From Schmidtea nova (lineage: Eukaryota): a stretch of 64,000 nt of DNA. Position 1 is the first letter of the stretch, and every line of letters starts with the position of its first letter. The position numbers and the translations under genes were made by a program. Below are positions 24,924 to 56,150 of the stretch, piece after piece. The notes beneath the pieces were generated by a model, which was not told the DNA's origin, ran no database searches, and was given only the letters and a program-made list of their open reading frames with translations. The DNA lies in contig CM097882.1 in NCBI GenBank assembly GCA_044892505.1, positions 100,254,001-100,318,000 on the forward strand, in the 5' to 3' direction.

Positions 24924-25882
24924 TGTTAAGGATACCTAAATAACAATTTACTAATAAATAAATAAAATTACCTGGGTGAAAATCGTCATGACGAATGAGA
25001 TGGCTAATGGGAACTCAGAAAAGAAAACGGAAATAAAAAGAAATGAAAAATGAGAAAGAAGAAGCAGACAAAAGGAAGCAGACAAGGAAACAAAAACAAA
25101 GGTCAACACTAATTAATTAGTACATAGGGAAAAGGAATTTCAAATCGGGAAAAAGAAAAATAATAACAGTATGCTTATCTCGACAGCTTGTCAGAGATAA
25201 CGGGAACAAAAACAAAACAGGCCGGAGCGGCAAAAAGTAAATACAAAGTAGCCGAGTTGCTAAAGGCAGCATGGGAGTTCTAAAGAAGTATGGGAAATTT
25301 CAGAAGCAGAAATGAAAAAAAAGCAAGTGGTCACGAGTGCCGAACTGTCCGGCGTAACATGGGAGTTGCGGGAGACAAACGAACGATGACAAACTATAAA
25401 AGGCGAAAGCAATCGGAACTGAATCAGAAGTAAAATTAGAGAAGAAAAATAGAAGTAGATTCGAAGAAGCAAATCGGAGAATCGGAGAAATAAAATTGAA
25501 GAAGTGAATTTGACAAAGAAACTAGTGAATTCGAGTGTAATTGATTAAAGGCGAGTGCGTTGAATTGGAAAACGATAAAAGATTAAATTGTGTGTGGAAA
25601 ACCGAGAGCGAAATAAACTAATTGAACAGAACAAAACATTTTGATTGAATAAAGAGTCGGAGCGGTTAACAAAGAATAAAGTCAAAGCGCGGAAACAATC
25701 GAAACCAAGTACCAGTATTAAATCAAATCAGTGGTTAGTAGTTGTTGTTTTCTAGGCAATATAAAAGTGAGCTATTCTTCACGAAGTGTCGTAATAAGCT
25801 CGTATAATTGTCAAAAGAGTTTATTGAATTGGTTGTGAAAATTAAATCGTGTAAATCAGTCTAATAATCAATAAAGTTTGTG

Positions 25883-28110
25883 AGTAGGTAGATGTGTGGA
25901 GTCAAACACAAAGAAATGAGTCATAATGCGTGGGCGGAAAATTTTAAACAAAGAACTTTTTTTTTCGGAACCCCCCCCGGGGGGGTCAATTTTTTTTTTT
26001 TTTTTTTTTTTCGCGCCAAAAATTTTTGAATTTTTTTTTTTGAAAATTTTTTTTTTCGCGCCAAATTTAAATTTGAAAATTTTTTAACACAAAATTTTTT
26101 AACACAAATTATTTTTTTTTTTAACACAAAATTTTTTAACACAAAATTTTTTAACACAAAATTTTTTAACACAAAATTTTTTAACACAAATTTTTTCAAC
26201 ACAAAATTTTTTAACACAAATTTTTTCAACACAAAATTTTTTAACACAAAATTTTTTTTTTTTTCACAAATTTTTTTTTTAAAAATTTTTTTTTTTTTTT
26301 AAACAAAGAACTTTTTTATGCGTGGGCGTTAAAAATTTAAACAAAGAACTTTTTAATGCGTGGGCGTAAAAAATTTTTAAACAAAGAACTTTTTCGAGGC
26401 CCCCCCGGGGGGGTCAATTTTTTTTTTTTTTTTTTTTCGCGCCAAAAATTTTTGAATTTTTTTTTTGAAAATTTTTTTTTTTCGCGCCAAATTTAAATTT
26501 GAAAAATTTTTAACACAAAATTTTTTAACACAAATTTTTTTTTTTTAACAAAATTTTTTAACACAAAATTTTTTAACACAAAATTTTTTAACACAAAATT
26601 TTTTAACACAAATTTTTTCAACACAAAATTTTTTAACACAAATTTTTTCAACACAAAATTTTTTAACACAAAATTTTTTAACACAAATTTTTTCAACACA
26701 AAATTTTTTAACACAAAATTTTTTAACACAAATTTTTTCAACACAAAATTTTTTAACACAAAATTTTTTTTTTTTTCACAAATTTTTTTTTTAAAAATTT
26801 TTTTTTTTTTTTAAACAAAGAACTTTTTTATGCGTGGGCGTTAAAAATTTAAACAAAGAACTTTTTAATGCGTGGGCGTAAAAAAATTTTTAAACAAAGA
26901 ACTTTTTCGAGGCCCCCCCGGGGGGGTCAATTTTTTTTTTTTTTTTTTTTTCGCGCCAAAAATTTTTGAATTTTTTTTTTGAAAATTTTTTTTTTTCGCG
27001 CCAAATTTAAATTTGAAAAATTTTTAACACAAAATTTTTTAACACAAATTTTTTTTTTTTAACACAAAATTTTTTAACACAAAATTTTTTAACACAAAAT
27101 TTTTTAACACAAAATTTTTTAACACAAATTTTTTCAACACAAAATTTTTTAACACAAAATTTTTTAACACAAATTTTTTCAACACAAAATTTTTTAACAC
27201 AAAATTTTTTAACACAAATTTTTTCAACACAAAATTTTTTAACACAAAATTTTTTTTTTTTTCACAAATTTTTTTTAAAAATTTTTTTTTTTTTTTAAAC
27301 AAAGAACTTTTTTATGCGTGGGCGTAAAAAATTTAAACAAAGAACTTTTTAATGCGTGGGCGTAAAAATTTTTAAACAAAGAACTTTTTCGAGACCCCCC
27401 CCCGGGGGGGGGCTAATTTTTTTTTTTTTTTTTTTTTTTCAAAAATTATTTTTTCGCGCCAAAAATTTTTAAAATTTTTAAAAATTTATTTTTTTTTCAA
27501 ATTTTTTTTTTCCCGCCAAATTTATTATTGTAAAATAATTTTTTTTTTTTACACAAATTTTTTACACAAATTTTTTAACATAAATAATTTTAACAGAAAT
27601 ATTAGTCATCGAAAAGTTTGCAACACGCGTGCAACTTAAACAAAGACAATGCAATACATGTGCAAGACTTTGCAACACGCGTGCAACTTAAACAAAGACA
27701 ATGCAATACACGTGCAACATGAACAAAGACATTGAAAATAAAATTTATTTATAAATATATCGTTGTGTACGTGTACAAAATTTAGTTTCAAAATTATTTA
27801 CATCTGGATTATTACTCGGAATATTATTATTCATAGGAATATTATTCATTGTAATATTATTCATCGGAATACTAGTATTTGTCGGAATATTATTCTTTGG
27901 AATATTTGAAATCTTCTCCAGCCGTATGGATGCCGATAACATCATTATAATTATTAATATAAATAAACTTATATAATGTAATACAATGGCTGTTTTTTCA
28001 TTTTCAACTGTTTGATTTTGGTATCTGACTTCATATTCTTTTTTAACAAAAGTTTGATTGATACATTTTAATCGTTCAACTATTTTCATCATTATTTTGG
28101 CAATCATTTT
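25883..28110 (+). repeat. Left TIR of the Polinton (2.23 kb, internal block present three times)
   Basis: Reverse complement of 43544-44808 except that the block of C/G palindrome, AACACAAAATTTTTT array and GCGTGGGCG units (about 430-510 bp) occurs three times. Confidence 0.92.
27745..28107 (-). CDS. TIR-borne copy of the C-terminal 120 aa of the membrane protein at 43325-43909
   Basis: Identical translation from MIAKIMM onward; the upstream frame stays open into an N-masked tract. Confidence 0.5.
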   Translation of the reverse strand: MIAKIMMKIVERLKCINQTFVKKEYEVRYQNQTVENEKTAIVLHYISLFILIIIMMLSASIRLEKISNIPKNNIPTNTSIPMNNITMNNIPMNNNIPSNNPDVNNFETKFCTRTQRYIYK

Positions 28111-28959
28111 AATAATATTANNNNNNNNNNNNNNNNNNNNNNNNNNNNNNNNNNNNNNNNNNNNNNNNNNNNNNNNNNNNNNNNNNNNNNNNNNNNNNNN
28201 NNNNNNNNNNNNNNNNNNNNNNNNNNNNNNNNNNNNNNNNNNNNNNNNNNNNNNNNNNNNNNNNNNNNNNNNNNNNNNNNNNNNNNNNNNNNNNNNNNNN
28301 NNNNNNNNNNNNNNNNNNNNNNNNNNNNNNNNNNNNNNNNNNNNNNNNNNNNNNNNNNNNNNNNNNATAATAACTTATAATNNNNNNNNNNNNNNNNNNN
28401 NNNNNNNNNNNNNNNNNNNNNNNNNNNNNNNNNNNNNNNNNNNNNNNNNNNNNNNNNNNNNNNNNNNNNNNNNNNNNNNNNNNNNNNNNNNNNNNNNNNN
28501 NNNNNNNNNNNNNNNNNNNNNNNNNNNNNNNNNNNNNNNNNNNNNNNNNNNNNNNNNNNNNNNNNNNNNNNNNNNNNNNNNNNNNNNNNNNNNNNNNNNN
28601 NNNNNNNNNNNNNNNNNNNNNNNNNNNNNNNNNNNNNNNNNNNNNNNNNNNNNNNNNNNNNNNNNNNNNNNNNNNNNNNNNNNNNNNNNNNNNNNNNNNN
28701 NNNNNNNNNNNNNNNNNNNNNNNNNNNNNNNNNNNNNNNNNNNNNNNNNNNNNNNNNNNNNNNNNNNNNNNNNNNNNNNNNNNNNNNNNNNNNNNNNNNN
28801 NNNTTATAATAATAATAATAACTTGTAATAAAAATATTCAACACATAAAAAATATTCAACACATTAAAAATATTGTCATAGTTTTTATTGATTGCGCAAT
28901 ATTATTAACAATCAAAAAATAAGGCCCTAAAGAGGACCATTATTTCATTCTCAATCTTT

Positions 28960-29400
28960 TTTCATATTTCTTTTCGGTTTTCATATTTCTTTTCGGTTTT
29001 CATATTTCTTTTCTGTTTATCTTTTCGGTTATCATATTTCTTTTCGGTTTTTCGTTTCGGTTTTCATATTTCTTTTTAGTTTTGATATTTCTTTTATGTA
29101 TGTTCTTTTCGGATTCTTTTCTGTTTTCATTTCAGTATTATTTTCTGTTTTCACAATCTGTTTTTCTGATTTCCTTTCTGTTTTCATAATAAATTTTAAC
29201 AATTGAATTTCCTTTCTGTTTTCTTAAATCTAAAATCTAAATTTTTAAAAACTGATTGTTACAATCAAAAATTGTGGCCCTGAAGAGGGCCGATTGTGCA
29301 TTCGCATATCTTTCTGGTTTTTTTTTTTGATTTTCTGTTTTTGGATTTTTTGATTTTTTTTTTTTTGATTTTCTCTTAATTTTTTTTTTCTTTCCATTTT
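28960..29400. repeat. Low-complexity 17-18 bp repeats (TCATATTTCTTTTCGGTT-like) downstream of pPolB
   Basis: Tandem degenerate copies visible from 28962. Confidence 0.7.
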
Positions 29401-29422
29401 CTTATAGATTTATATCTAGCCA

Positions 29423-29498
29423 TCATCGCAAATAATTATGCTCCGGCTCTTCGTAAAATAAATACGGATCATCTTGTAGCTGTTGTTGTAGCTGCTGC

Positions 29499-29532
<34 letters not shown>

Positions 29533-32500
29533 GCTGTTGTTCATTCTGAGGCTGCTCCGTATCTAAAATACTGTTACCCCCTCTATAATGGCCATATGCC
29601 AGGCTTTTATTTTTCCCTACCCAATTGCGCTTGTCATCTCTACAGCTTAATGCCCGCTTATTATTTTTCACACTAAAAAGCTGGTGATTTTTTGATGTTA
29701 TCCTAAACTGGGGGACCGTATAGATCTTATTATTTAAATAGCAATCGAGATACGACTGATGAGTTAGTCCAGTATCCTTCATGCATATCCCCTTAGCCTT
29801 CATACTTTCCTCATCACCCATTAAGCTGTAGCATTTCGGTCTAAGAAACACCCACTCTTTATACAACATCCCTTTACTCTCGTCTTTGAACTTTCCAATG
29901 ACAGAGTCAAGGTTTCTGTTGTATAAAGGATCCATAGGGTCATAATTAGAGGTGTCCAGCAAGCAATCATTAACCATAGCCGGTAAAAGAGTGTCAAGAC
30001 TACAGTTTTTGACCTCAAGAAAAAAGGAGTCAGTATCCCCAGCGACGATGTTAATCTTACAGTTGTAGTCGTCACGATATTTTTGTAACTCTACATACTG
30101 TAGCTGGTACATTCTTAGTTTGGATAAATCCAGTACAGTTTGACCGATGTAGCTGGGTCTATCCAAACATACTGACTCCTTTCGCAGCAAGACAGAAATA
30201 AGGTCATTATCGATTTTATTTGTTTTACGAAACGTAGGTTTCGAGCAATAAGTTATTAATTTTTCGGCATTATTACATAGTCGTAAATTAATACGTTTTT
30301 TTAAATTTTCAACAGTCTTGCCGTAAAGACTGTTGTTTAATAATTTATAAAAATCTCGATCTAATTTAGTTGTTGACGCCGATCGTAACGTCGTATTTGT
30401 GTTGATATAATTTAAAAAAATTTTATCTTGATTAAATTTTATGGCCCTGTGGACCTTTGTTATGACGATGCCTAATTTAAGAAATAGTTGCAGAAGCCGC
30501 CAATGAAGAACATAGTTCTTCTTTGGATTATGCGTGAGCATCAGCTTCTCAACCTTGGATCCCGGTGCACACATCTTTTCAGCGGCAACTGGAAGATCAT
30601 CCAGTTTGTCGTGAATTGATGCCGGTATCTCCAAATCCACTTCTATGGTGTAGCCATAATGAAGTGCATCTAGATCAACCGATGTGCACTGACAAACGAT
30701 TTCATTTAATAAGTGGTCATCTGTGACCCATTCAAAATTAGAACAAGGTAAAGGTTGGCTTAAGGCCCATCCATACAAGTTATTGATGTCTATGTAAAGC
30801 AATGAGGTATCCGGGCTTGTTTTTACATAGTGTTTGTTAATAAAAGTTAGTCCGCCACGGATACCGCCCTCGAAAAAATTGTACATTTCCATATCGGTGA
30901 GGAGCTCGATTGGAGATTCTAAGGTCATTAAGGCAGAACTCCAAGATAAACTTGGAATCCCGAGGAAATTCAGAGGTTCAAGTCTATTATGATTAATAGA
31001 CTTGAAACGAAATTGCTGGAAAAAATCAGCAAGTAAAAAAACGTCCAGTTTTAAATAAACCATCATGTAATCAAAAAGTGAATTACATGATGTTTCAATC
31101 CATATTCTTTGCGCCATTGCATATTCTTCTGGCTTTACATCTTTCCAGATCGGCGGGAGAGCTAAAGTAGAATGTAAAACTTCTAAGGAAGTTGCAGCAT
31201 CATAGGGAAAAATGCCCTTGGCTGTAATTATAGTGCCTTGAAATTCTGATTCGGTGAGTGGTAAGGAAGTAAGAGTTTTGACAGCATTATTTAAAGACTC
31301 GCTGACGAATTGGTATGAGTCTATGAATTTGACAGTTAAAGAGTCAATCCTAGCAAAAAGACTAAGAAATTTCTCACTTGTTAATGGAATACAGCTAATA
31401 TTCCATTTACGATATTTAGATAAACCATATTTTAGAATATGGTGTAGATCATACCCCTTTAAATTGTGAAAGATGACAGGAAGGGTATGTCTAATCTGCC
31501 TATTTTTATTACATTCTGAGCAAGCTGCTCCAAGAAAAAGACCGGTGAAATGGTCATGGTCCCTAACAGGTCGACATAATAGCTTTTTGCATAAATAACA
31601 AATTGTGCTGTTGTTAAATTCAATTTGTTGCTCATGGCTAATTATCATAGTTTTATTAGCGTTTTTATAATAGTACGGCGTTACTATGTGGCGACTTATA
31701 AGCTCTATTTCATTTAGAAAATCCTCTACACAATTAAGGCCTGCAAAAGATTTATAGGATTTTTGTCCAGTAAAGTTGTTAATTAATAACAAACCCGCAG
31801 AAATAGGCAAATGCTTTTGGAAATACCTGGTGTCCGCAGGTAAGATTGCCTCAAAGTCGGCATAAATAACAAAGGGAGGAGTCACTGTTTTGCGCCATTC
31901 AGTAAATTCCAGCATCTTATTTTTTGGTAAAGTGTACAAAGTTGTACCAGTTTGATTCTTATCACAAAGACCCCTATGCCTATTGAAAACCTCATCATTT
32001 CGAAAACCATTTAAGCACCTCGGACACCATTTACTACAAATCCTTACCGAAGTTATCGCGCTATTACGGCAATTCAAAAAACGATTCAAATCAAAGATGC
32101 CTATATAATGAAAAGTTTTTCTGTTTTGAAGTAATAACAGATTTATTGGGGTACCACCTACAACTTTTGACTTGTAAATTAAGTCAATAAAAGGATGTTT
32201 AAGGACAATATCCTCATTTTCATCAATAAGATCTAATAAGGGATTTTCATCATATGACAAAACATTGACGCTATAACCTGGGTTTTGTCTCTCAAATTTA
32301 CTTATATTACCAAGTCTCATAGGCATATCATTGGGGTCATAATTCAATTGTGAAAGATTATAAGAGGAAGGAATGCAACGAGTTTCATTTGTTAAACTGT
32401 CATATTTAATTATAGAAAGGAAACTATATAAAAAACAAAAGTTGTCCTGATTTACCACATTAACTAAACATTTCTTTTTCCTTAAAGATTTCGGAGTTTC

Positions 32501-34787
32501 GATAAACTGACTTCCGCTTAATCGAGTTATTTCAGAGTATCTGGTCAAGACAAAGCTAATGTATTCAACTTTTGAGATAGTCCAGTTACTACCTTTCTCA
32601 TTTATCGCGATGATTTTTTCATTTAAAAGAGCAATACCTTCCTCAATGAAGGTATCACTCCAGACCCTGGCAGAATTTGAGATAACGAACGATTGTAATT
32701 CATCGTCCTTCTCAAATTCCACCTTCAAACAGAATTGAATTTTAACAGTTTTATATTTGTTAACTTGAAAAGTTAATTTTTCTAAAAGAATTGTCGGTAC
32801 TGAGACCGTTTTCAAATTAAGATTTTCCACGTCCATTTTAACAATTATATGATTGTTATTTAGGTCATTGACGATTTCGACGGCACCATATCCGATTTGG
32901 TTATTATTTAAATTATTTAAATTATTTACATTATTATTTAAATTTTCATCATCACTGATGACTATTAATTCATCATCAGTGAGATCTATTATTTGAATTT
33001 TAGTAGGAACTGAATCCGGAATTTTAATATGTTTTCGTTTATTATTTGTATTATTTATATTATTGATATTATTTGTATTATTTATATTATTTGTTTGATT
33101 ATTATTTGTATTATTTATAGTATTATTTAGATTATTTGTATTATTTATAGTATTATTTAGATTATTGTTATTTATATTATTATTATTTATAGTATTATTT
33201 ATAGTATTATTTATAGGATTATTAATAAAATTAGGAAAAAGTTCCTTAAATAAAATTTTCTTAGACGGTTGAAACTGTGAAAGATGGCTACAGTGCCTAT
33301 TAAAGAAGTCTATATATGGGCAAATTTCGATAAGTTTACAGGTGGGGCATATGAGGTGGGTAACAGTATTATATGGCAACGAGTAGTATTTTTCCATAAT
33401 GATATGACAATCATTATGGAACCTACTGTTGCAAAAATTTTTGTAGGTTGAACCTGAATTTTAAAATAAAAAAATAATTAAATAAATTATCAATATAAAT
33501 AATGAAAATAAAAAATAATATAAAGTAAAATGGATATTTCATAATATAATTATATAACATAAATATCTTTATTGAAAAATCAAAATTTCATAATATAATT
33601 CTATTTCCTAAATGTTTTTATTGAAATATCAATATTTCATAATATAATTCTATTTCCTAAATGTTTTTATTGAAATATCAATATTTCATAATATAATGAT
33701 ATAACATAAATATTTTTTATTGAAAAGTAAAATAGACATTTCATAATATAATTCTATAAGATAAATGTTTTTTATTGAAAAGTAAAATGGATATTTCCTA
33801 ATATAATGGTATAAGATAAATGTTTTTTATTGAAAAGTAAAATGGATATTTCCTAATATAATGTTATAACATAAATGTTTTTTAGTGAAAATGGATATTT
33901 CATAATAAAATTCTAGTACATAAATGTCTTTTAACAAAAATTATAATTCATATTTCATAATATAATGCTATAACATAAATACTTTTTATTGAAAATGGAT
34001 ATTTCATAATATAATGGTATAACATAAATGTCTTTTAACAAAAATTATAATTCATATTTCATAATATAATGCTATAACATAAATACTTTTAATATTATAC
34101 TTTTAAATAATTTAGTAATTGTTTTTATAAACCATTACTAAATTATTTAAAAATAATATATTAAAAGTATTATTTATATTAAAAAGTTAAATTAAAAAAG
34201 TTAAATTATAAATCAATAATGATTAATACATACATTTGTTCTTCCCATAAATTGGGGCATCCAGATTAATAGGAGCATTTCTCGGGACGTCAGCAACTTT
34301 CGGGACGTCAGCAACTTTCGGGACATCATCATGATTCGGGACCTCATCGTCCATATCGACATTTCTCATAATATTCATATTATCTGAAACATTTATAATG
34401 AAATAATATTAATAAAATAAATAAATAAATTACAATTAGATCGTCCCATTGACGAAAATCCACCCATCCTTGATGTTGATGCTTCGGCATTGTTGTTGTT
34501 GTAGTTGTTACTATTATTAACTAAAGTAATAGTAAAATAATAATAAAAAATAATAATAAATATTACCCAAAAATCTAATCCCATTATTCTCATTAATACG
34601 AATCCTTGGAGCAACATTCATATCTATCGATTGATCGTCTTGTCCCATCATAACATGAGCGATATTTCGCGCTATATTCATTTCTGAAATAATAATAATA
34701 ATAATAAAAAATAAAAATAAAAATAATAAATTTACCATTTACACCTCCTGCGAGATGTCTTTCCTTTACGATTCGGATATTGTTCAT
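29423..34787 (-). CDS. polB: Protein-primed family B DNA polymerase with terminal-protein region; predicted five exons, 1478 aa (the single ORF 29423-33397 gives 1324 aa)
   Basis: Exo II FHNLKGYD, motif A YIDINNLYG, motif B KLLNNSLYGK, motif C GDTDS, HDHFTG..CN zinc insert, poly-Q tail. Predicted exons 34787-34736, 34683-34567, 34520-34434, 34383-34234 and 33453-29423 join in frame at GT-AG sites. The polymerase call is firm; the 5' exons are a prediction. Confidence 0.9.
33525..34110. repeat. Degenerate minisatellite of about 55-60 bp inside the predicted fourth polB intron
   Basis: About ten copies of ATATTTCATAATATAAT..TATAACATAAATG..TTTATTGAAAA. Confidence 0.85.
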
Positions 34788-34854
34788 AATTGTTTGATAT
34801 TAATTTAAAATTGATTTAAAAAATTTGTAAGTAAAAAGTGACGAAATAATGCAA

Positions 34855-35060
34855 GTATATACTATATAAAGATGAATTTTATTAACCGACCAATCAGAAT
34901 CGAGATAGGATAGGCAAATACATGCACACATACTGCACACACAATGTACCTTTGTTTATGTGTGTTTGACGTCACGATATTGCTTTGTATCGTGACAAAG
35001 ACATGATATGACGTGTTTCATCATGTGCTTATCACGCACTGATCACGCACTGGTCATGTC
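34855..35060 (-). promoter_or_regulatory. Predicted promoter of the spliced polB gene
   Basis: TATA-like 34855-34870, CCAAT box 34890-34894, CRE TGACGTCA 34967-34974, ACAAAGACA 34995-35003. Confidence 0.55.
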
Positions 35061-35148
35061 TTTATGATTAAAATAATAATATTTAATATTAATAATAATA
35101 AAAATAATAATATTTTAAAAAATAATAATAAAAAATAATAAAATACAT

Positions 35149-35550
35149 TTATTGCTTTAAATAATCTACAACAGCAGACAAGCACCCTTTATAGGCACAC
35201 ATACAATGGTCTTTATAGGGACATGAAATGTTTTCAGGAACATATTCAACTTCTTTATAAGTATATTTGATTAATCTTAATTTCGGGAAATACTTCTTCA
35301 AAACATACATCTTTTCATTATCGGTAACATAGAAAATAGCTCCTTTATCTGTGATATCATCCATTATACATTTTGGGCAAAAATAATCTTGTCCTTCAAA
35401 CGATTCTATACGATCAGGCCATAAAGATAAATCACTGTATATATAATACTGGGGTGTGAAAATATTATTAACATTCATAATACATAATTCCTTAATTGTT
35501 GTTCCACCCATTTCATTATAACCATAAAAATCGATAAAATAACAAGACAT
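35149..35550 (-). CDS. 133-aa protein resembling small DEDD/DnaQ exonuclease-like Polinton ORFs (probably non-catalytic)
   Basis: YFIDFYGY...IKELCI N-terminus, FYVTDNEK..LKKY and a C-terminal Cys/His cluster CPYKDHCMCA; recognised from memory of motifs only. Confidence 0.5.
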   Translation of the reverse strand: MSCYFIDFYGYNEMGGTTIKELCIMNVNNIFTPQYYIYSDLSLWPDRIESFEGQDYFCPKCIMDDITDKGAIFYVTDNEKMYVLKKYFPKLRLIKYTYKEVEYVPENISCPYKDHCMCAYKGCLSAVVDYLKQ

Positions 35551-35582
35551 TTTTTCAAATAAAATATATTAAAATAAATTGT

Positions 35583-35960
35583 TTATAACATTGATTTTAA
35601 CCATGCAAGGCAATGTTCACCACAAGTGATTGTTAAAGGATGCTGATATCGAATTCTATTATACACAATAGGTTTACCAATAGTTTGAAGTTTTCGAACA
35701 AGTAAATTCGGATAATAATATCCAAAGGGATCAAATACATGTATTCGATCTGGTTTCACATAAACTGCAATCCAATGTTCACCGCCCAACGTAGATGTCT
35801 GAGTATTTACAATGATGGCTTGATTCATTTTCAAATAAGGTATTTTATCCAGAGGAAATACTCCAATAAATTGATTTCCCAATAGTTTTTTACCTTGATG
35901 TCATACCTGAATAGAACTAATTAAAAATAAATAACTAATCAAATAAAAATCTTACTCCAT
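35583..35960 (-). CDS. Adenain-like cysteine protease (49-nt intron 35907-35955; one-base frame discrepancy at 35886-35891)
   Basis: Catalytic His (GEHWIAVY), Asp (FDPFG), Gln and Cys (YQHPLTITCGEHC); ATGGA|GTAAG...TTCAG junction. Confidence 0.9.
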
Positions 35961-36034
35961 GATGATAATAATAATAATAATAATAATAACTTTGGTCATT
36001 TATACTGTTTAAACCAATAATGTTTGAGCTCTGC

Positions 36035-37255
36035 TCAAACTAATATTGTTCGATTGGCAGTAATTTGTACTTCATTTTCAAAAACTCCATATATAATTAC
36101 ATGAACCGGTTCATCAATGGGTTTTGCAAACTTTATATCGAGTCGTAAATTCCCGTTTTGAGGGATTTGGCTTTGATTCAAATCGAAATCGGGAGCGAGC
36201 ACAAATGTAAAGAATGGATATTTACTTTTAAATTCATCCAGACTTATACCACAATTCAAGTTTTTATCCAAATATCCTAGATTTCGGACAAGACTTTGCA
36301 TATATGTGGCACTAAAATTATCATTTTCAAAATCTTGAGTATAAGTTTCTCGAAAATCGGTATTTTTCGATAACGATAATGAAGTCACATTGAAATGTTT
36401 GAATGTAGATGCAGATTCAGCATATGATCCATTATATTGATTTTCAGTTTGAAAAGCCACAAGAATGAAATTAGGCATTCTTCTATCTCCAAATATTTGC
36501 TCCTTGTAAAATGACGATGCCCCTTTACCGATTGCAAACGATACGATTTCTTTAGATTTTAATGGATAAATTGCATGTTTACTATTTAAACCAATTTGAT
36601 GACCGGCCAAAACTGAAGATTCACATCGAACTCTTCTTACCATTAATTTTGCATCAACTATTTGGATTATAGGTTTCCCAGCTGCAGATTTCAATGATAA
36701 TGAAGATTCAGATCTCTTCAATCTAATATGTACATTAACTCCGGGAAGTAAGTATTTTGGTTGATCCATAAAATCGAGTTGTAATGATGAACACATGTTG
36801 AAAAGTTTAGATCCCTTGATCCATTTTTTCCGATCGTCAGATGAACCATATCCCATTGGAGTAAGACATGTTTCTTTTGTATCGCTAGTATAATTTAAAA
36901 CAGTTTCGATTATGGCCTTGTGTGCATATGTATTGTTTCCACCCTCGATTTTTATATTATTAAATCCAAGAATCGCATCTTTGAAAAGAGTATGAAATAG
37001 GTAATTATTAGGCACTACATCACTCGCATCAACTAATTTATTTTTATCTTTATCTAGAACCTTGACAGTAACGAATAATAAAGTATCGTTCAAATCCAAA
37101 TATTCGGTTGCCGATCCATTAATGTAAAATTCAACATTATTTCTACTATCTGTAATAGAATTCATTGGAAAAACATCTTCAAACACCCCATATTCAATAA
37201 CTGCTTGAGGTGATGGTCGATCAAAAAGACATAATTCAGATTTACCGCAAATCAT
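36035..37255 (-). CDS. Double jelly-roll major capsid protein (hexon-like), 406 aa
   Basis: CGKSELCLF..P.Q N-terminus, EYLDLNDTLLFV, NNYLFHTLFKD, KYLLPGVNVHIRL, GNLRLDIKF, typical of Polinton major capsids. Confidence 0.9.
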   Translation of the reverse strand: MICGKSELCLFDRPSPQAVIEYGVFEDVFPMNSITDSRNNVEFYINGSATEYLDLNDTLLFVTVKVLDKDKNKLVDASDVVPNNYLFHTLFKDAILGFNNIKIEGGNNTYAHKAIIETVLNYTSDTKETCLTPMGYGSSDDRKKWIKGSKLFNMCSSLQLDFMDQPKYLLPGVNVHIRLKRSESSLSLKSAAGKPIIQIVDAKLMVRRVRCESSVLAGHQIGLNSKHAIYPLKSKEIVSFAIGKGASSFYKEQIFGDRRMPNFILVAFQTENQYNGSYAESASTFKHFNVTSLSLSKNTDFRETYTQDFENDNFSATYMQSLVRNLGYLDKNLNCGISLDEFKSKYPFFTFVLAPDFDLNQSQIPQNGNLRLDIKFAKPIDEPVHVIIYGVFENEVQITANRTILV

Positions 37256-37617
37256 TCTTCAAATATAGTTCCATGACCTTTCATTCGTTTGTTTATACGT
37301 TTTCTAATCTTTTTACGTCTTGGTCCTACCGGTTCAGGTTGCGGTTCGTTTTTGGAAAACATATTTGAAATTGACGGTATCGCCTTGGATACAGCCTCCA
37401 TAGCATTCGTTTTCAATGTAGGCAAAATTTTCTGATCTTTCATTATAACGTCTTTAGCAGTTTTCATTCCAAAACTGCCCAGTCGCTTAAGTAGTGGAAG
37501 TGCAAATCTTCCAATAGTTTTCAACCAACCTGATCCATACTGTTTACCTATAAAATACGGTAATTCGCCACCAGTTTGGCTATTACTGTACAATGAAATT
37601 ATATCGGGATTACTCAT
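37252..37617 (-). CDS. Small virion core / membrane-active precursor protein, 121 aa
   Basis: QTGG and QYGSG protease-site motifs followed by an amphipathic helix WLKTIGRFALPLLKRLG; basic C-terminus; ATGA overlap with the capsid gene. Confidence 0.75.
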   Translation of the reverse strand: MSNPDIISLYSNSQTGGELPYFIGKQYGSGWLKTIGRFALPLLKRLGSFGMKTAKDVIMKDQKILPTLKTNAMEAVSKAIPSISNMFSKNEPQPEPVGPRRKKIRKRINKRMKGHGTIFEE

Positions 37618-38662
37618 GATGTTTTCGAAAATGTAGAGTCAAATGAGTTTTTGAATTTTTTGGAAAGTTTATTAAATTACCTCTATCATCTCGGATATTT
37701 ATTTCTATATTGTTTATACAGGATGTTGAAACAGATAAATACATTGGATTTTCAACTTGTATTTGAACAACCTCATCCTGTTCATATTTTTCAATCCATA
37801 CAGATTTCAACATGGGAACTAATGAATCACCGACAATTATAGGATTGACTATATTACTGTAAATGAACATTTGCTGATGAAGTTTAATTATTTTTGGTTT
37901 ATATATTCCAACAGTGAAGCTTCCGTCTTGAGCATATGTAGCTTTCGCTAATCCCAATGTTTTTACAAGGTTATTGTCAAAAGTTATTTCGCTAACATCT
38001 GCATTCAAACTGAATTTGAAGTAACTATCATCTACCAATTCCAGAGATTTAAAAATACTTGCACAATTTAGAATAAAATATGATTGCAATTCATCCAGTT
38101 TCGATATGTATAAATTATCGGTAAATGTATGTATAAATGCAGAATCAGCCTTGTACTCCATCTTTATTCTAATTTTTTCCGTTAATGGACCATCTATACC
38201 ATAATATGGTAACGGTATCTTGTATGTATCTGTAGGACTTACAATACTCTGTTTCGTTAATCCCATTCTTTTTGCCATTGCCAAAGTATCAAAAGTTATA
38301 GTGAAGGGAAAATTATCACAGGTAAAATAAATAGAATGTCTATCGCTACTGATTTGAGCAATATCATCGGCAGGATTAGATATATCAACTTCACAAAATT
38401 GATTGTTGATAATCAAATTTTTATATTTTGTATGTAAAGTTTTCTTTTTGTACCGAATTTCTGATTTACTGTAAAATGGAAATGGATTATACACAAATGT
38501 AAAGTCTAAGAGAGCGACTTCCCAAATCCCGTCCAAATACATTGGATTTTGGAGATTGACCATGAAATTACTGGAAGTATTATCTGGATGTATATCTGGA
38601 CAACTGTTGCTAGGTAGAATCATATAAAAATTCATTTTACTAGGTTTTTTGATGATATCCAT
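37610..38662 (-). CDS. Minor capsid protein (penton-like); likely start at Met10 (38635)
   Basis: FYMILPSNS..HPDNTSSNF..L..P..L.G.WEVAL N-terminus and MFIYSNIV.P.IVGD..VPML C-terminus, typical of Polinton minor capsids. Confidence 0.88.
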   Translation of the reverse strand: MDIIKKPSKMNFYMILPSNSCPDIHPDNTSSNFMVNLQNPMYLDGIWEVALLDFTFVYNPFPFYSKSEIRYKKKTLHTKYKNLIINNQFCEVDISNPADDIAQISSDRHSIYFTCDNFPFTITFDTLAMAKRMGLTKQSIVSPTDTYKIPLPYYGIDGPLTEKIRIKMEYKADSAFIHTFTDNLYISKLDELQSYFILNCASIFKSLELVDDSYFKFSLNADVSEITFDNNLVKTLGLAKATYAQDGSFTVGIYKPKIIKLHQQMFIYSNIVNPIIVGDSLVPMLKSVWIEKYEQDEVVQIQVENPMYLSVSTSCINNIEINIRDDRGNLINFPKNSKTHLTLHFRKHHE

Positions 38663-39678
38663 GATGGTTCTTTATATCCATGCCACTTTACATAGTATTG
38701 TTTATCCTTACCCACCATTTTAGATTTCAGGATTTTTTGAATTCTAAATATTGTCGGTGGAGGAATAACTTGTAATTCTTGTTCGTAGAATTTCCCACTG
38801 ATTATATTGTTATCAGAGTCACAAATAGTATACATGACAGGATTCTGCACTGTGTTGACTTTCGATATTTGATATACCTCATCACTCCAATTATTATCAA
38901 AATTTTTAATGAATGGCGATGCACTAATCTTGCTAATTCGAACATGATCACCAATTTTATATTTTGGTTTCTTTACTTTTACTTCACTCACAATATTTTC
39001 AGTATCAACTACTTCTGCCGGTTTCCTGTCATTTATACCCCGATGAGCACTATGATTATAACTATGAATCAATTGAGGTAAAACATTAATCCAGGTTTTA
39101 TTGCCTTTAAAAACAAAGTATTTTTTCAATCGATCACGCAAAGTTCGATTAAATCTCTCGACATGAGCGGCTTTGAATTGCGAGAATACCGAATAATGAT
39201 TTATTCCCTTGATAACTTCCTTGACTTTACTGTTGTAAAATTCCTTTCCTAAAAAATATTAAAAATGTATAAATTTAAATTAAAATTTACCCAAATCGGT
39301 TTGTAAATTAGTTGGCCGATCCTTTTTCATCATTGTCTTGATAGCGATTGCCATGTCATTAGCTGATTTCGATTTTACTCCAATTGCTCGAGCAAATCTA
39401 CTGTAAACATCAATACATGTTAAAATATACTTGTACCCCTTGTTAATAGCGGAATACGGAATCATTTCCATCAAATCCATTTGCCACAAATCATTGATTC
39501 TATATGTTTTATATGCTCGAGTTGGAAACCGTTTCAACATCGGTTTGTTTAGACTGTATGCAAGTTGCCCCGATAACCAACTTTGTGTCTGTTGTTTCGA
39601 CTTCTGTGCTTTTTTCCTTAGCTTTTCGACTCCACCGAAACCGGCGTCGTCTTTTGGGTTCGTCCAGATCTTCTCCAT
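38632..39678 (-). CDS. int: Retroviral-like (rve) integrase with C-terminal chromodomain, two exons, 334 aa
   Basis: WQMDL, spliced LQTDLG|KEFYN, AAHVERFNRTLR, chromodomain IQKIL..YYVKWHGY; exons 39678-39291 and 39248-38632 total 1005 nt. Confidence 0.92.
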
Positions 39679-39733
39679 TACAACAAGAAGATTTAAAGTT
39701 TAAATTTAAATTAGGTAATGATTGACCCATTGT

Positions 39734-40279
39734 TTATGACCTTTGTCCCAATAAACCAGCACCTCCCAATAATGATAAAGCTAGTGGTAATAATGCGGCA
39801 ATAAATCCTCCTTGTTGTTTATATATTATTTTTCGCATAAGTTTTCGATTTTTTGTTTTTACTAGCGACAACAATGGTTTCTTATGCTTGTTCAAAACAC
39901 GTCGATTAGATGGACTGAGATGCATTTTACCTCGTACTACTTTAATTAAAATAGTGAGTAAATCATCGATAACGTAATTAGGAAACGATTGAAGAATACC
40001 CATTCTTCTAGCGGATGGGGCTTTAAGCAATGCATTAAAAAACGGAAAACTCCGATGATGTACTTGTTTAGCATTTGATTTCAAATTAATTGGAATTTGA
40101 TTTTGTTTGGGAAAATTATCCATAATTAGTTTTTTCGATGGTGTATAACTTGTTTTTGAAACTGATTTTGAAACGGATTTCTTTGTCGATTTCTTTCTTC
40201 GACCTGCTTTCTTACCTATTTTCATTGATTTTCGAGCTTTTATCAATCGTTCAAACTTTACTCGAGATTTCATTAACAT
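39734..40279 (-). CDS. Basic core protein with adenovirus pX-like C-terminus, 181 aa
   Basis: K/R/S-rich N-terminus; QQGG|FIAALLPLALSLLGG resembles the pX MRGG|ILPLLIPLI motif. Confidence 0.75.
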   Translation of the reverse strand: MLMKSRVKFERLIKARKSMKIGKKAGRRKKSTKKSVSKSVSKTSYTPSKKLIMDNFPKQNQIPINLKSNAKQVHHRSFPFFNALLKAPSARRMGILQSFPNYVIDDLLTILIKVVRGKMHLSPSNRRVLNKHKKPLLSLVKTKNRKLMRKIIYKQQGGFIAALLPLALSLLGGAGLLGQRS

Positions 40280-40299
40280 TATTATTACTGTAAATCAAT

Positions 40300-40923
40300 T
40301 TAACTTTGTTTATAAACCATGGCTCCTTCCTTGTTAAAAATATCAGTTCTAACCCTTAAATCATCACTGCATTGTTGAGTAAAATCCAAGAAAATATATC
40401 CATGAGGAGATTTTGTAGCATCCTGAAAGGCTTCAATCAAAAAGTTACGATTTGAAGGATAAGCTTGTCTTGCCAGAAAATCAATAACTGTTGCATCTCT
40501 AGGATTTTTAAAAACAACAAGATATTGAACATTTAAATTACGAGTTCGATGACTACCGCCCTGATGAAATAAATTCTGAGTTATAAAAATAACAGTAACA
40601 CCTTTATGTCTACTGATTTTCGTAAATAAATTATTAAAATCCTTTTCTTTATTTGCTTCTTGATACAAATCGTCAATGATAATCACATCACCTTGTTTTA
40701 ATCTAGATGACCAGTTTTTATCGAAACCTTTTATGATTGTCATTTTTATTTTACAAAACTGATCTTGTGTCATTCCACTTTCGTCGTCAGCACCCCTATG
40801 CCAATAAATATTATTAAATTTCGACTTGAATAATTTCGATTGCAATAATTTACAAACAAATAAAGTTTTTCCACTCCCGCTCGGACCAACAATTTGAAAC
40901 ACTGCATCATTTCTTAATTCCAT
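40300..40923 (-). CDS. A32/FtsK-like genome packaging ATPase, 207 aa
   Basis: Walker A GPSGSGKT, Walker B IIIDD, ISRH and ITQ motifs. Confidence 0.93.
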   Translation of the reverse strand: MELRNDAVFQIVGPSGSGKTLFVCKLLQSKLFKSKFNNIYWHRGADDESGMTQDQFCKIKMTIIKGFDKNWSSRLKQGDVIIIDDLYQEANKEKDFNNLFTKISRHKGVTVIFITQNLFHQGGSHRTRNLNVQYLVVFKNPRDATVIDFLARQAYPSNRNFLIEAFQDATKSPHGYIFLDFTQQCSDDLRVRTDIFNKEGAMVYKQS

Positions 40924-41016
40924 ATTTAAAATTTATATTTTCTTAATATTATTGATTATATTTGTTTTAAATACATGTTCTCAAAGTAATTATTTCATTT
41001 AAAAATATTTTCAGTA

Positions 41017-41484
41017 ATGATTAGAAACATTAATTACAAGGGTAAGACAGATGTATCACACATGAAATTTCCAAAAGGTAAACCCCAGCAAATTGTAGAT
41101 CGAACTGGAAAATATCCCATAATATACTTTAAAACAGGAAGATATAGAATAATGGGATGCAGGGAATTTATTAGTGAGGAACAAGTTGAGTTTTACGATT
41201 TAAAGATACAATCGATAACTGTAACTGCGGATTTAGGATTTATTTGTAATTTGAATGAATTATCTAAATTGATACCGTGTGTTTACGAGCCAGAATTATT
41301 TCCAGCTTTGAGGTATACCAAATATAATCCCATGTGTGTAAACATATTTCCAAGTGGGAAATTAGTCATATTAGGATTAAAAAACAAAGACTATAGTACT
41401 ATAGTTGATGATATTATTTACGATATAAAATCAATTATAGAAGATAAAGCCTTTGTTGATTTCATACTAACATGTGACTCATGA
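41017..41484 (+). CDS. TATA-binding-protein-like protein, 155 aa
   Basis: YEPELFPALRY and NIFPSGKLVILG match TBP repeat 2 (YEPELFPGLIY, LIFVSGKIVLTG); IRNINYKG..IYFKTGRYRIMG matches repeat 1. Confidence 0.82.
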   Translation: MIRNINYKGKTDVSHMKFPKGKPQQIVDRTGKYPIIYFKTGRYRIMGCREFISEEQVEFYDLKIQSITVTADLGFICNLNELSKLIPCVYEPELFPALRYTKYNPMCVNIFPSGKLVILGLKNKDYSTIVDDIIYDIKSIIEDKAFVDFILTCDS

Positions 41485-41509
41485 CTGCAATATCGATGCA
41501 TTAGAAATG

Positions 41510-41625
41510 CACGATTCTGATTGGCTCTGTGTGTATCGATAGAATAAAGACATGTTGTGCATGCTTCATTCTGATTGGTTCATTGTGTGTGTTTGAAATC
41601 ATGTGTGTTTCTTTGATATATATAC
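41510..41625 (+). promoter_or_regulatory. Predicted promoter: two inverted CCAAT boxes and TATA
   Basis: CTGATTGG ending at 41524 and 41578; TATATATA 41617-41624; CGATTCTGATTGG is shared exactly with the polB promoter. Confidence 0.55.
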
Positions 41626-41659
41626 TATGAACAATCTCACATAGTTTATATTCACAATT

Positions 41660-42295
41660 ATGTATCTTACGCAAACTTTAATTAAAAGCCGTAAGGGTTT
41701 TAATTTTTAATTTTTCATATTTAATATTATTTTAGAAAAACTAATGAACGTTATCTATCGAAAGCTGGAGGAGCTATTCCCGAACCTGATGCCGGCTCTC
41801 GTCTACACGGCTCCGGAGATGTTCCCATATAAAATTATGGTCCTGACTGGTATCGATATAAACCAGATTGTGCTCGACCACATGACGAGCCAGAATACAG
41901 ATCTCCCAATGGTACCCGAACACATTATGTGCGCATATCAATGCGGAAGTTGTGTTGAAAGAATACGACAATTCAACATCTGGGTTTTGCGAAACTCGTT
42001 GAAATTATTCGATGTCCAGCAAATGGATAAAATCGATGAGGAGGAAGAAGAGCAAATCAAGGAAACCTGGCCCAACTCTACTCCGGAGCCGATTGATGCC
42101 GATGATCAATCAAAAAATGATTGCTCAATGGAACATGCACCATCTCTAGATGGCCCGTATCCATCGGAATCACCTGATTGTTCAGAATCTCCACAATCAC
42201 CTGATTGTGCAGAATGCCATCGACAGGCTGATGGTGTTGAAGAAGAGGAGGAAGAAGAAGAAGAAGAAAAAGAAAAAGAAAACGACGAACAATAA
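41660..42295 (+). CDS. Hypothetical protein with CxxC and acidic tail; two exons (45-nt intron 41691-41735)
   Basis: ATG at 41660, donor C|GTAAGG and acceptor TTTAG|AA join in frame to ORF 41744-42295; poly-Glu C-terminus; a homologous relic at 49170-49400. Confidence 0.7.
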
Positions 42296-42841
42296 TTTGA
42301 TTTGCATGTTTAATGTATTTAGTTTTTTTTTATTCTTTTAGTTATGTCATTTTTGTTATTTTAGTATAATAAAAGATTTTTAATTATTTTAGTTTTTTAT
42401 TCATTTTAGTTTTTGTTTTCATTTATTTAAATAATAGTAATAGTTTTTTTTTTATTAAAACATTTTTAATAGTAGTAATTTTTATTAACTAAATATATAT
42501 CAAGTTAATAGTTTTTTATTAAATACTAATTAATATGAAAGTGTTTTATGAAAGATAATAATTTGTGAAATAAATAAATAAATAAATAAATAACAACATT
42601 AGTAGCAGAACATTGTGATCAGAACCCTGGAAGCAGAATCTCTTCTGTGATGGTTTTGATATACAAAAAACTTCATACTAAACATATACTAAATAATTTA
42701 ACATGCACGCATACAACAAAGACATTGCAATACATGTGCATAGTGTGTGCAAAACGAATGCATGAATATGATTGGACAAAGACATCTAGTCATCAGTATA
42801 AATACAAAGACATTTTATAAAATATTGTCACAATTTATAAA

Positions 42842-43258
42842 ATGAATTCAAGAAAACAAAATTTAGATATAAGCGAAGAAAAAATATATCAGACTGAGGT
42901 AAAACCAGTCCAGATGTACTACGACAGCCGACTTTATTTTTTGGTTAATGAAATACCGTATCGATTATCATTTCCGGTAAAGTTAACAAAATCTTTATAT
43001 GACAGTCTTGCTGTAATTATTGCCAAGGAAGATATTATCGCATTAAATAGATTATTTTCAAAGATGAATGTTAATTTGACATGTAAAGAAACCATGTACA
43101 TCAATAACAGAAAAACTCGGTTTCATGATGCGTTTCAAACAATTGATTTCATGGATCAAGAACATTGGTTCGTTACCGTTATTATTCAAGGGTACAAGAT
43201 TGATAAAAAAGATGTTGTTACTCCAATTTGGAGAGTTGACAATGCAAGATATGCATAA
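42842..43258 (+). CDS. Hypothetical 138-aa protein, possibly an OB-fold ssDNA-binding protein
   Basis: Intact ORF with CCAAT and TATA upstream; beta-strand-like C-terminus VTVIIQGYKIDKKDVVTPIWRV. The function is a guess. Confidence 0.6.
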   Translation: MNSRKQNLDISEEKIYQTEVKPVQMYYDSRLYFLVNEIPYRLSFPVKLTKSLYDSLAVIIAKEDIIALNRLFSKMNVNLTCKETMYINNRKTRFHDAFQTIDFMDQEHWFVTVIIQGYKIDKKDVVTPIWRVDNARYA

Positions 43259-43324
43259 TTGTTTTTTAATAAATATTTTTTAGTATGAACAATTTTAGTT
43301 TTGATATTAGTTTTTGTTTTTAAA

Positions 43325-43909
43325 ATGAAATTAATTATAGTTATTTTATTATTATGTGTTCACAATACTGAAGGAGAACAAGCTTTGGAAGATTGTCAAT
43401 CATCCCATCCGTTTCGAAAACAAGATAGTACTTGTGCGAGTTATAATGATATATGTCTTTACTCAAACCTTGAATGCAGTCAAATAAAATTACAATGTAA
43501 TCAATGTCCTTCCAAAAATAATGTGATTAATAATGACATTGAAAAAATGATTGCCAAAATAATGATGAAAATAGTTGAACGATTAAAATGTATCAATCAA
43601 ACTTTTGTTAAAAAAGAATATGAAGTCAGATACCAAAATCAAACAGTTGAAAATGAAAAAACAGCCATTGTATTACATTATATAAGTTTATTTATATTAA
43701 TAATTATAATGATGTTATCGGCATCCATACGGCTGGAGAAGATTTCAAATATTCCAAAGAATAATATTCCGACAAATACTAGTATTCCGATGAATAATAT
43801 TACAATGAATAATATTCCTATGAATAATAATATTCCGAGTAATAATCCAGATGTAAATAATTTTGAAACTAAATTTTGTACACGTACACAACGATATATT
43901 TATAAATAA
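43325..43909 (+). CDS. Predicted type I membrane protein (signal peptide, six-Cys ectodomain, TM, NNIPM-repeat tail)
   Basis: MKLIIVILLLCVHNTEG signal-like start, Cys-rich segment, TM AIVLHYISLFILIIIMMLSASI. Confidence 0.72.
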   Translation: MKLIIVILLLCVHNTEGEQALEDCQSSHPFRKQDSTCASYNDICLYSNLECSQIKLQCNQCPSKNNVINNDIEKMIAKIMMKIVERLKCINQTFVKKEYEVRYQNQTVENEKTAIVLHYISLFILIIIMMLSASIRLEKISNIPKNNIPTNTSIPMNNITMNNIPMNNNIPSNNPDVNNFETKFCTRTQRYIYK

Positions 43910-44808
43910 ATTTTATTTTCAATGTCTTTGTTCATGTTGCACGTGTATTGCATTGTCTTTGTTTAAGTTGCACGCGTGTTGCAAAGTCTTGCACATGTAT
44001 TGCATTGTCTTTGTTTAAGTTGCACGCGTGTTGCAAACTTTTCGATGACTAATATTTCTGTTAAAATTATTTATGTTAAAAAATTTGTGTAAAAAATTTG
44101 TGTAAAAAAAAAAAATTATTTTACAATAATAAATTTGGCGGGAAAAAAAAATTTGAAAAAAAAATAAATTTTTAAAAATTTTAAAAATTTTTGGCGCGAA
44201 AAAATAATTTTTGAAAAAAAAAAAAAAAAAAAAAAATTAGCCCCCCCCGGGGGAGGGGGTCTCGAAAAAGTTCTTTGTTTAAAAATTTTTTACGCCCACG
44301 CATTAAAAAGTTCTTTGTTTAAAAAAAAAAAAAAATTTTTTAAAAAAAATTTGTGAAAAAAAAAAAAATTTTGTGTTAAAAAATTTTGTGTTGAAAAAAT
44401 TTGTGTTAAAAAATTTTGTGTTAAAAAATTTTGTGTTGAAAAAATTTGTGTTAAAAAATTTTGTGTTAAAAAATTTTGTGTTGAAAAAATTTGTGTTAAA
44501 AAATTTTGTGTTGAAAAAATTTGTGTTAAAAAATTTTGTGTTAAAAAATATTGTGTTAAAAAATTTTGTGTTAAAAAAAAAAAAATTTGTGTTAAAAAAT
44601 TTTGTGTTAAAAAATTTTCAAATTTAAATTTGGCGCGAAAAAAAAAATTTTCAAAAAAAAAAATTCAAAAATTTTTGGCGCGAAAAAAAAAAAAAAAAAA
44701 TTGACCCCCCCCCCGGGGGGGTTCCGAAAAAAAAGTTCTTTGTTTAAAATTTTCCGCCCACGCATTATGACTCATTTCTTTGTGTTTGACTCCACACATC
44801 TACCTACT
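43544..44808 (-). repeat. Right TIR of the Polinton (1,265 bp)
   Basis: Reverse complement of the left end; inner boundary lies inside the membrane-protein gene. Confidence 0.92.
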
Positions 44809-45080
44809 TTTGTGTTGTTAAAAGTGTTATTGGGGTCAATTAAAAACACGTTTTGGAGTCAGATATTTGATTGGTAACTTTTACCATTTCACCAACTACC
44901 CCATAACACAACAATTTTGTTTTGTTTATAATTTAATTCATTTTTTCTTTAATGATTTTTTCTTTATCTTGTTTAATATTTTTAATTTTTTTTTTGATTA
45001 TTAGATTTACCAATAACCGAATATTTAGGTTGAACAATGACTTTTTGAATGAAACCTTTTTTTTAATTAAATTTACGATT

Positions 45081-55878: not shown

Positions 55879-56150
55879 TAGGACCCTCCATACACCTTTG
55901 AAGGTATGACCATCATACTTACCTCTCAATTACCTTTTGTTTGATATATAACTTGTAAGGATTGTAAAAGGTTAAAGGTTTTTGACCCTTTTAAGGTTCA
56001 GGACCCTCCATACACCTTCGAAGGTATGAACATCATACTAACCTCTCAATTACCTTTTGTTTGATATATAACTTGTAAGGATTGTAAAAGGTTAAAGGTT
56101 TTTGATCCCTTGAGGTTAAGAACCCACCATAGACCTTCGAGGGTATTTTT
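55879..56150. repeat. 120-bp tandem repeat, about 2.3 copies
   Basis: GGACCCTCCATACACCTT... recurs at about 55881 and 56001, partially at 56121. Confidence 0.88.

Follow-up and report, generated by a model that had tools for sequence, protein, structure and literature searches.

Host-factor sites in viral terminal repeats are already familiar from adenoviruses and from retroviral LTRs, whose U3 enhancers carry tandem sites of this kind that turn over between lineages, set cell tropism and, as the virus spreads, seed the genome; what we report as new is the occurrence of such arrays, and their likely exchange, in the TIRs of Maverick elements. The adenovirus genome is linear and protein-primed, with an invariant terminal core followed by host-factor sites (PMC12116113), and an E2F site near its end is functional (PMC4726734). 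Maverick/Polinton elements have as their hallmarks TIRs, a 6-bp target duplication, a pPolB, an rve integrase, an ATPase, an adenain protease and a length of ~17-19 kb, and virions of animal Mavericks have not been seen (PMC8097293). In the open-access literature we found no description of regulatory elements in the ends of animal Mavericks, and the parts consulted of PMC8097293, PMC8502044, PMC6431247, PMC11410931 and a Dugesia preprint mention neither arrays of factor sites in the TIRs of Mavericks nor lineages that exchange them.

The window, a stretch of 64,000 nt of Schmidtea nova DNA, contains at 25883-44808 a Maverick/Polinton element of the proposed adintovirus group (Table 1). It has TIRs, a perfect 6-bp target-site duplication (25877-25882 and 44809-44814), pPolB, rve integrase, packaging ATPase and adenain protease, and so shares all the hallmarks listed above; like the MELD viruses related to Mavericks, for which TBP-like genes are listed (PMC8502044), it also has a TBP-like gene. 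Unlike Mavericks as described in that literature, it carries factor-site arrays in its TIRs and belongs to a family with a copy number in the thousands. It resembles adenovirus in placing host-factor sites, among them E2F words near the end, behind an invariant terminal core, and differs in the length of its homotypic arrays, which lie in A/T tracts and vary by lineage, in flanking genes that point toward the end, and in integrating. As in retroviral LTR U3 enhancers, the word arrays of the TIRs are duplicated and turned over between lineages; unlike LTRs, these are the inverted ends of a DNA element, no inward promoter was found from the repeat, and the enhancer role is putative.

Table 1. 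Positions, within the 64-kb window, of the element, its terminal words and its genes.
Feature	Position	Strand	Remarks
Host GPCR gene	12471-13733		In window, outside element
Maverick/Polinton element	25883..44808	.	18,926 bp; matching termini and perfect 6-bp target-site duplication
Left TIR	25883..28110	+	Three-and-a-bit tandem units of ~490 bp (period 486)
Invariant 19-nt terminus	25883..25901	+	Mirror 44790-44808; common to lineages A-E
AP-1 word	25917..25923	+	Mirror 44768-44774; consensus per PMC1702496, Table 1
Seven EGR 9-mers	25928, 26320, 26358, 26832, 26870, 27316, 27354 (span 25928..27362)	+	
C-run/G-run palindrome	25971..25985	.	Once per unit (e.g. 26400-26413)
Eight left E2F 9-mers	26009, 26054, 26435, 26480, 26949, 26994, 27452, 27509 (span 26009..27517)	+	Each between a T-run and an A-run
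Arrays of 15-bp A/T-tract unit	26076..27255	+	Mirror 44363-44618
Protein-primed DNA polymerase B, 1324 aa	29423..33397	-	Heads toward left TIR
Adenain-like protease	35583..35900	-	PF00770, E 4e-6
Likely major capsid protein, 406 aa	36035..37255	-	Assigned from size and position; 151 homologues
rve integrase and chromodomain, two consecutive frames	38632..39678	-	PF00665, E 2.6e-8; PF00385, E 1.8e-5
Packaging ATPase	40300..40923	-	PF04665, E 5.3e-7
TBP-like protein	41017..41484	+	Heads toward right TIR; PF00352, E 6.7e-14; PDB TBP chains, best E 1.3e-17
138-aa protein, predicted OB fold	42842..43258	+	Resembles phage and giant-virus single-stranded-DNA-binding proteins; model pLDDT 92
194-aa ORF	43325..43909	+	Ends within right TIR, outward-pointing
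Right TIR	43544..44808	-	Single repeat unit
Right TIR words	44137..44763	-	E2F 44137, 44193, 44632, 44677; EGR 44293, 44755; Sox-type 44273, 44313, 44738

The polymerase ORF has no PF03175 match itself, and is 58-65% identical to six loci above the PF03175 cut-off; the Pfam scan, on which this point depends, placed no OTU family in it. The likely capsid module consists of the 406-aa ORF and a 350-aa ORF, candidates for the jelly-roll major and minor capsid proteins, which stand at the expected place and are kept in relatives, with no match in Pfam or the PDB, and the two-part layout of the integrase is also present in metagenome relatives. An initial shallow model of the 138-aa protein reached a pLDDT of 43; the model used here (pLDDT 92) compares with DUF2815 (Z 7.7), ASFV CP312R (7.5), the Enc34 SSB (7.2) and T7 gp2.5 (6.8), and the ESM Atlas gave no usable match. 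Adintovirus Oncoid genes carry an Rb-binding motif (PMC8502044), and an Oncoid-like, Rb-binding oncoprotein was considered as a partner of the E2F words and rejected for the 138-aa ORF; its LxCxE occurs in 9/9 aligned homologues of the same genome, which were chosen by LxCxE, against 0/61 distant homologues, is without acidic flanks and sits in the predicted OB fold. Nowhere in the element did we detect an Rb-binding motif that is conserved. There are no tRNA genes within the 64-kb window and no Rfam matches in the element. A homologue search with the host GPCR outside the element found two unnamed proteins.

The inner part of the left TIR is a copy of the 3' end of the ORF at 43325-43909, and the inverted arms (27364-28110 and 43544-44290) are 96% identical. 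Columns 1-19 of alignment A3, whose rows were chosen by this terminus, are invariant, and the 19 nt are likely to comprise the core origin and the integrase attachment site. The AP-1 words at 25917 and 44768 are one TIR site present at both ends; the heptamer has three further sites in the window, one of them within the element at 41475. The 9-mer that we take to be an EGR site, a label taken over from the earlier note, occurs in the window only at its seven left and two right TIR sites, and six of the seven left copies sit in a duplicated 38-bp unit together with a Sox-type heptamer. The AP-1 and EGR positions given in the earlier note were all confirmed exactly, and its many Sox-type motifs amount to ten heptamers within 25917-27520. 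Its four E2F words of the right TIR are present as well, 1-3 nt away from where they had been put, while the eight of the left TIR are absent from it. The E2F 12-mer equals the E2F site of a DHFR-promoter probe (PMC3205837). The usual distance between E2F words is 31-34 bp and lineage H has a unit of 31 bp, about three helical turns. The description of these words as nearly the only ones to bear CpG was overstated, although by a hand count the EGR and E2F words do hold most CpGs (29/38 on the left, 11/16 on the right); most of the others lie in or beside the C-run/G-run palindrome. Because of the ~490-bp and 38-bp tandem units, the left-hand word counts are not independent, and the independent content of the left TIR is one AP-1, one EGR and one Sox-type word and two E2F forms. 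The 15-bp A/T-tract unit is the commonest island word in the lineage of the window (559 sites) and matches no motif tested; a C-tract 30-100 nt from the end is present in every lineage inspected. We note that several TIR words are near-palindromic, and that fold-back could create such words.

The resemblance to factor sites was compared with chance using two motif lists. Our own panel held 20 consensus motifs, chosen after seeing lineages A-E, and was set against permuted panels that preserved palindromes. Over its first 500 nt from the left, the element in the window holds four of the 20 motifs, where permuted panels average 0.47 (1/3000 reach four); among 78 stretches of host DNA in the window, each of 500 bp, one likewise had four (mean 0.72). 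Seven representative ends hold seven panel motifs against 2.4 expected (8/3000), six of them repeated against 0.54 (0/3000). Applied to five held-out lineages seen later, the panel gave no excess in breadth (2 motifs against 1.7; 1657/3000); in the same lineages, arrays occur in 2 against 0.11 (36/3000) and sites total 15 against 3.7 (80/3000). The outside list comprised 32 Xie motifs, conserved in promoters, from Table 1 of PMC1702496, gapped and duplicate entries among the first 36 being omitted. For the 25 of these with at least two fixed C/G positions, 7 of 11 representative ends hold arrays of at least four copies against 0.85 for permuted, palindrome-preserving lists (0/1500), with 4 distinct arrayed motifs against 0.77 (8/1500); for all 32, there are 8 distinct arrayed motifs against 2.46 (2/1500), and the number of ends with an array is not significant (9 against 4.21; 153/1500), all of these being figures that the kinship of the 11 ends (A, B, C and E are kin, and H was entered twice) keeps from being clean probabilities.

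All inspected lineages have a similar terminus and a nearby C-tract. Lineage A, that of the window, has 3,359 ends with the 31-nt terminus, 2,258 of them with the exact 54-mer of terminus, AP-1 and EGR; in lineage B, 3,012 ends carry one exact form of such a 54-mer. The polymerase of lineage B is ~78% identical to that of the window, its ATPase and integrase ~99%, and its ends have a different spacer, with the central base of AP-1 flipped and the EGR and Sox-type words kept at other spacings; it also has tandem AP-1 arrays and E2F arrays. Among the first 100 exact termini, AP-1, EGR and E2F occur together in 54, and at least one of AP-1, CRE, PAR, EGR and E2F in 99. Across 162 ends, AP-1 takes both central forms (259 and 168 sites), an EGR variant at position 8 has 16 sites against 184 exact ones, and the second E2F form 16 against 346. 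The commonest variants thus fall mostly at positions that we assume to be tolerated, such as EGR position 8; frequent variants without known tolerance affect AP-1 position 2 (22 ends) and E2F position 1 (18 ends). Of 38 elements in which both ends agree at every position from 20 to 55, 29 keep AP-1 and EGR, in four arrangements, six belong to lineage D, and three are without one word through deletion or replacement; none has a point-broken word.

Other lineages carry other words. Ends of lineage C have AP-1 and CRE arrays without E2F. Lineage D (552 ends; TBP-like protein 58% identical) has PAR-bZIP/E4BP4 arrays, with 4-6 octamers in 7/7 ends picked by terminus, and AP-1, EGR and E2F are absent in 9/9 ends, seven of which were picked by terminus alone. 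Lineages F, F2, G, H and I were found through distant polymerase and capsid-like protein searches, and target-duplicated end pairs were confirmed for F, F2, G and H. In lineage G (1,808 ends), all 13 ends inspected have 14-18 half-sites that we take to be ROR-type and 1-4 words presumably of RFX type, and there are also arrays of ERR-type half-sites. In lineage H (322 ends), all ten ends have 3-12 plus 5-14 YY1-type words and 3-10 nuclear-receptor (ERR-type) half-sites; the labels YY1, ESRRA and E4BP4 are those of Table 1 of PMC1702496. Lineage F has a single E2F word near its end, the arrays of F and F2 match no tested motif, and that of I matches only an A/T-rich one. A polymerase tree of 24 fragments places A, B and D together (support 96/98), apart from F/F2, G, H and I, to which it gives no mutual order. 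Lineages with wholly different factor families have C-terminal polymerase parts 74-88% identical to that of the window. We conclude that factor arrays have likely been exchanged between lineages in the manner of retroviral LTR enhancers. The earlier note had made its proposal depend on conservation of the motifs in related elements, which proves true of part of the family: A and B keep the words while the spacers change, but D, G, H, F2 and I are without an AP-1/EGR/E2F array and F has its one E2F word.

The family is large and mostly young. In the assembly searched, which comprises 1.25 Gb with three very large contigs, the 19-nt terminus is matched exactly at 10,667 places (5346 + 5321). Among the 162 ends examined there are 53 end pairs with perfect target duplications, whose two ends differ at 35 of 2,155 positions, with no substitution in 34 pairs; from this near-identity it follows that most copies are young. 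Of the first 100 termini, 62 form target-duplicated pairs with a median span of ~17 kb, and a hand extrapolation from these 100 puts the 19-nt-terminus family at ~4-7% of the assembly, which makes it a candidate for having driven the growth of the genome. In one paper on a planarian genome the expanded DNA-transposon families were left unidentified (PMC11410931), and a Maverick expansion is described in Dugesia (10.64898/2025.12.11.693146). The EGR 9-mer occurs 15,613 times genome-wide against 639 for the reversed word, and the E2F 12-mer 30,145 times against 57, an excess due to the copy number of the element. In samples from the first 8.5 Mb (EGR) and 3 Mb (E2F) of contig C1, Maverick ends account for 96/96 EGR words, 85 of them at most 3 kb inside an exact terminus and 11 in ends with altered termini, and for 99/100 E2F words, of which 97 are inside an exact terminus and two belong to altered ends; the remaining word lies elsewhere. 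No relatives were found in viral contigs. Metagenome relatives comprise 70 loci, with a capsid-like protein 29-60% identical; in the 23 loci of at least 3.5 kb there was neither a TIR pair nor an array of motifs, and no terminus was seen at the ends of the six inspected. Among the sequencing runs listed for 35100-43900 none is of RNA, and four of unspecified kind cover all 30 bins, without bearing on expression.

We suggest that the TIRs of this Maverick and its kin are host-factor docking arrays, enhancers that would tie each lineage to a host cell state, and give this reading, drawn from sequence, a probability of roughly 0.55. Recognised genes that adjoin a TIR head outward, toward it, both in the window and at the ten long ends that were mapped. 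There are also a few inward ORFs, short and unassigned, which overlap these genes, and in the part of the window and the ten long ends that were read, no gene of the core set starts just inside the TIR and runs inward. Since the neighbouring genes all point toward the TIRs, these are not proximal promoters, and the cassette would act at a distance on internal promoters, with a reach of 1.5-4 kb to those of the SSB-like, TBP-like and ATPase genes at the right end and of about 5-7 kb to the polymerase gene. The A/T tracts would keep the end of the element nucleosome-poor, host Jun/Fos, EGR and E2F together with an HMG-box factor would bind the TIR words, and the bound TIRs would switch the element on, whether integrated or excised, when the host cell is in a particular state. 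Through AP-1 and EGR the set of the dominant lineage would respond to immediate-early signals, and through E2F to cell-cycle signals, of a kind that wounds raise, but growth and differentiation too. The arrays would originate by slippage, and as elements replicate, selection would retain the arrays to which a useful factor binds.

The main rival of this reading is an adenovirus-like origin helper. NFI and Oct-1 serve adenovirus as origin helpers, and factors bound inside the Maverick terminus might in the same way aid the start of protein-primed replication or integration, with transcription secondary. At both ends the words do start ~25 nt inside the invariant terminus, the flanking genes are all directed outward, every lineage inspected has its C-tract near the end, and host factors boost adenovirus replication at the origin (PMC12116113). 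A helper that contacts the polymerase should stay fixed, however, and here the factor families change completely between polymerases that are 74-88% identical, while the arrays reach hundreds of bases inward; we regard an auxiliary origin as improbable. It is still harder to credit that the words are a by-product, repeats made by slippage or fold-back which resemble factor sites by accident in an element that owes its copy number to its coding genes, or words that serve proteins encoded by the element. Tandem units account for the counts, the arrays of F and F2 and the 15-bp unit match no motif tested, the held-out breadth test was null, and the element does encode a TBP-like and a predicted SSB-like protein. 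Against this, the EGR, ROR-type and YY1-type words are not palindromes, palindrome-preserving permuted panels (by which, with inspection, fold-back was judged) rarely match, and words persist while spacers change.

Repressors can recognise E2F, YY1 and ROR-type words alike, and E2F with Rb-type corepressors, YY1 or Rev-erb-type receptors might silence the element in non-dividing cells; AP-1, CRE and EGR arrays, on the other hand, are typically activating. In adenovirus, a conserved E2F site of the E1A enhancer acts in repression and in persistence (PMC4726734), which would favour such a latency switch, but lineages C and D are without an E2F array and the element yielded no conserved Rb-binding motif, and we consider the switch very unlikely. 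The earlier note had proposed, within what is a special case of the enhancer reading, a wound-plus-proliferation sensor that would reactivate the element in injured, cycling stem cells. A sensor of wounds and proliferation is a plausible role for the dominant lineage, yet in this narrow form it is doubtful. Sister lineages have spread without AP-1, EGR or E2F words. In favour of the proposal, amplification is greatest in the lineages with this set (5,270 exact 54-mers, as compared with 552 termini in D, 1,808 in G and 322 in H), the three words stand together in 54/100 ends, and new heritable copies would have to arise in germline or stem cells. AP-1 and EGR are injury-response motifs in the acoel, Hydra and others (PMC9829460, PMC8049744), and in planarians stem-cell and constitutive promoters have poly(dA:dT) tracts; yet the promoters of stem-cell genes in S. 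mediterranea are without enriched factor motifs, and it is in the epidermis and the brain that putative EGR motifs are accessible (PMC10558129). S. mediterranea Polintons are de-silenced during differentiation, tissue-specifically (PMC8532177). The TIRs sit, moreover, at the 3' ends of neighbouring genes, and the conserved adenovirus E2F site represses and supports persistence (PMC4726734).

Returning to the enhancer reading, AP-1 and EGR drive regeneration- and injury-responsive enhancers of the acoel, Hydra and other animals, and the Maverick TIRs share with these the motif families AP-1, EGR and CRE (PMC9829460, PMC8049744). Those enhancers are defined by injury-induced accessibility and reporters, the TIRs by their sequence. 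As a tentative possibility, on the unlikely side, this genome may host a Maverick community that partitions the animal by cell state through terminal enhancers (AP-1/EGR/E2F for wounds and proliferation, AP-1/CRE, PAR-bZIP, ROR/ERR/RFX and YY1/ERR), in which the wound and proliferation type would have won; its roughly ten thousand ends would account for almost every perfect EGR site and DHFR-type E2F site of the genome, enough to provide neighbouring host genes with regeneration enhancers or to titrate the factors. The repeats would also be a confounder wherever regeneration is studied by motif enrichment in a genome of this kind. What triggers animal Mavericks is the question that the arrays address, and arrays that differ between coexisting lineages would predict which cell state wakes each of them.

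The Maverick integrase reads as two consecutive frames in the window copy, which belongs to lineage A of the own-genome Mavericks. Because the frame break falls at the same point in many Maverick copies and in distant relatives, this arrangement suggests a short intron or a programmed event rather than decay. The product of a further gene has a predicted OB fold, like T7 gp2.5, Enc34 SSB and ASFV CP312R, and its family returned 37 matches in the viral library at E <= 0.001. The structural Z scores of the model are all below 8, and hence suggestive only; we consider that this gene likely encodes a single-stranded-DNA-binding protein of the Maverick. An internal promoter likely lies upstream of the polymerase, where the tandem array and putative promoter region contain one CRE, one CCAAT-box and one Sox-type word.

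Features of the Maverick and of its surroundings in the window
Feature	Window position	Remark
Rhodopsin/Srw-type GPCR, intronless	12471-13733	flank
MULE transposase	14608-16380	flank
55-bp tandem array and likely internal promoter	33516-34084 and 34700-35150	upstream of polymerase
Integrase	38632-39678	two frames
TBP-like gene	41017-41484	within Maverick
Predicted OB-fold protein gene	42842-43258	65 homologues, without Pfam match
120-bp repeat	55880-56146	resembles TIR array of lineage E ends
Gypsy-type pol ORF	57892-61623	flank

Elsewhere in the genome, half of the ten lineage-B elements examined (L049, L053, L055, L059 and L061) are inserted within genes of other Mavericks. Four capsid-like genes at G000:C3:135179811-135239808 share one orientation and are spaced about 19-20 kb apart, which suggests a head-to-tail array of elements. 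The repeat array of lineage E ends (L083, L084, L090 and L091) occupies about 1.7-2 kb of the TIR, and the core Maverick proteins had no match in the first 7 kb of these ends. At L015, a rearranged Maverick copy, a short, inward-facing candidate RING-finger coding fragment was noted by eye in the inner part of the end.

The TBP-like protein is 50-97% identical across the own-genome Maverick lineages and recurs in metagenome relatives at 34-52% identity. Given this shared presence, we regard the TBP-like gene as a feature of the Maverick clade.
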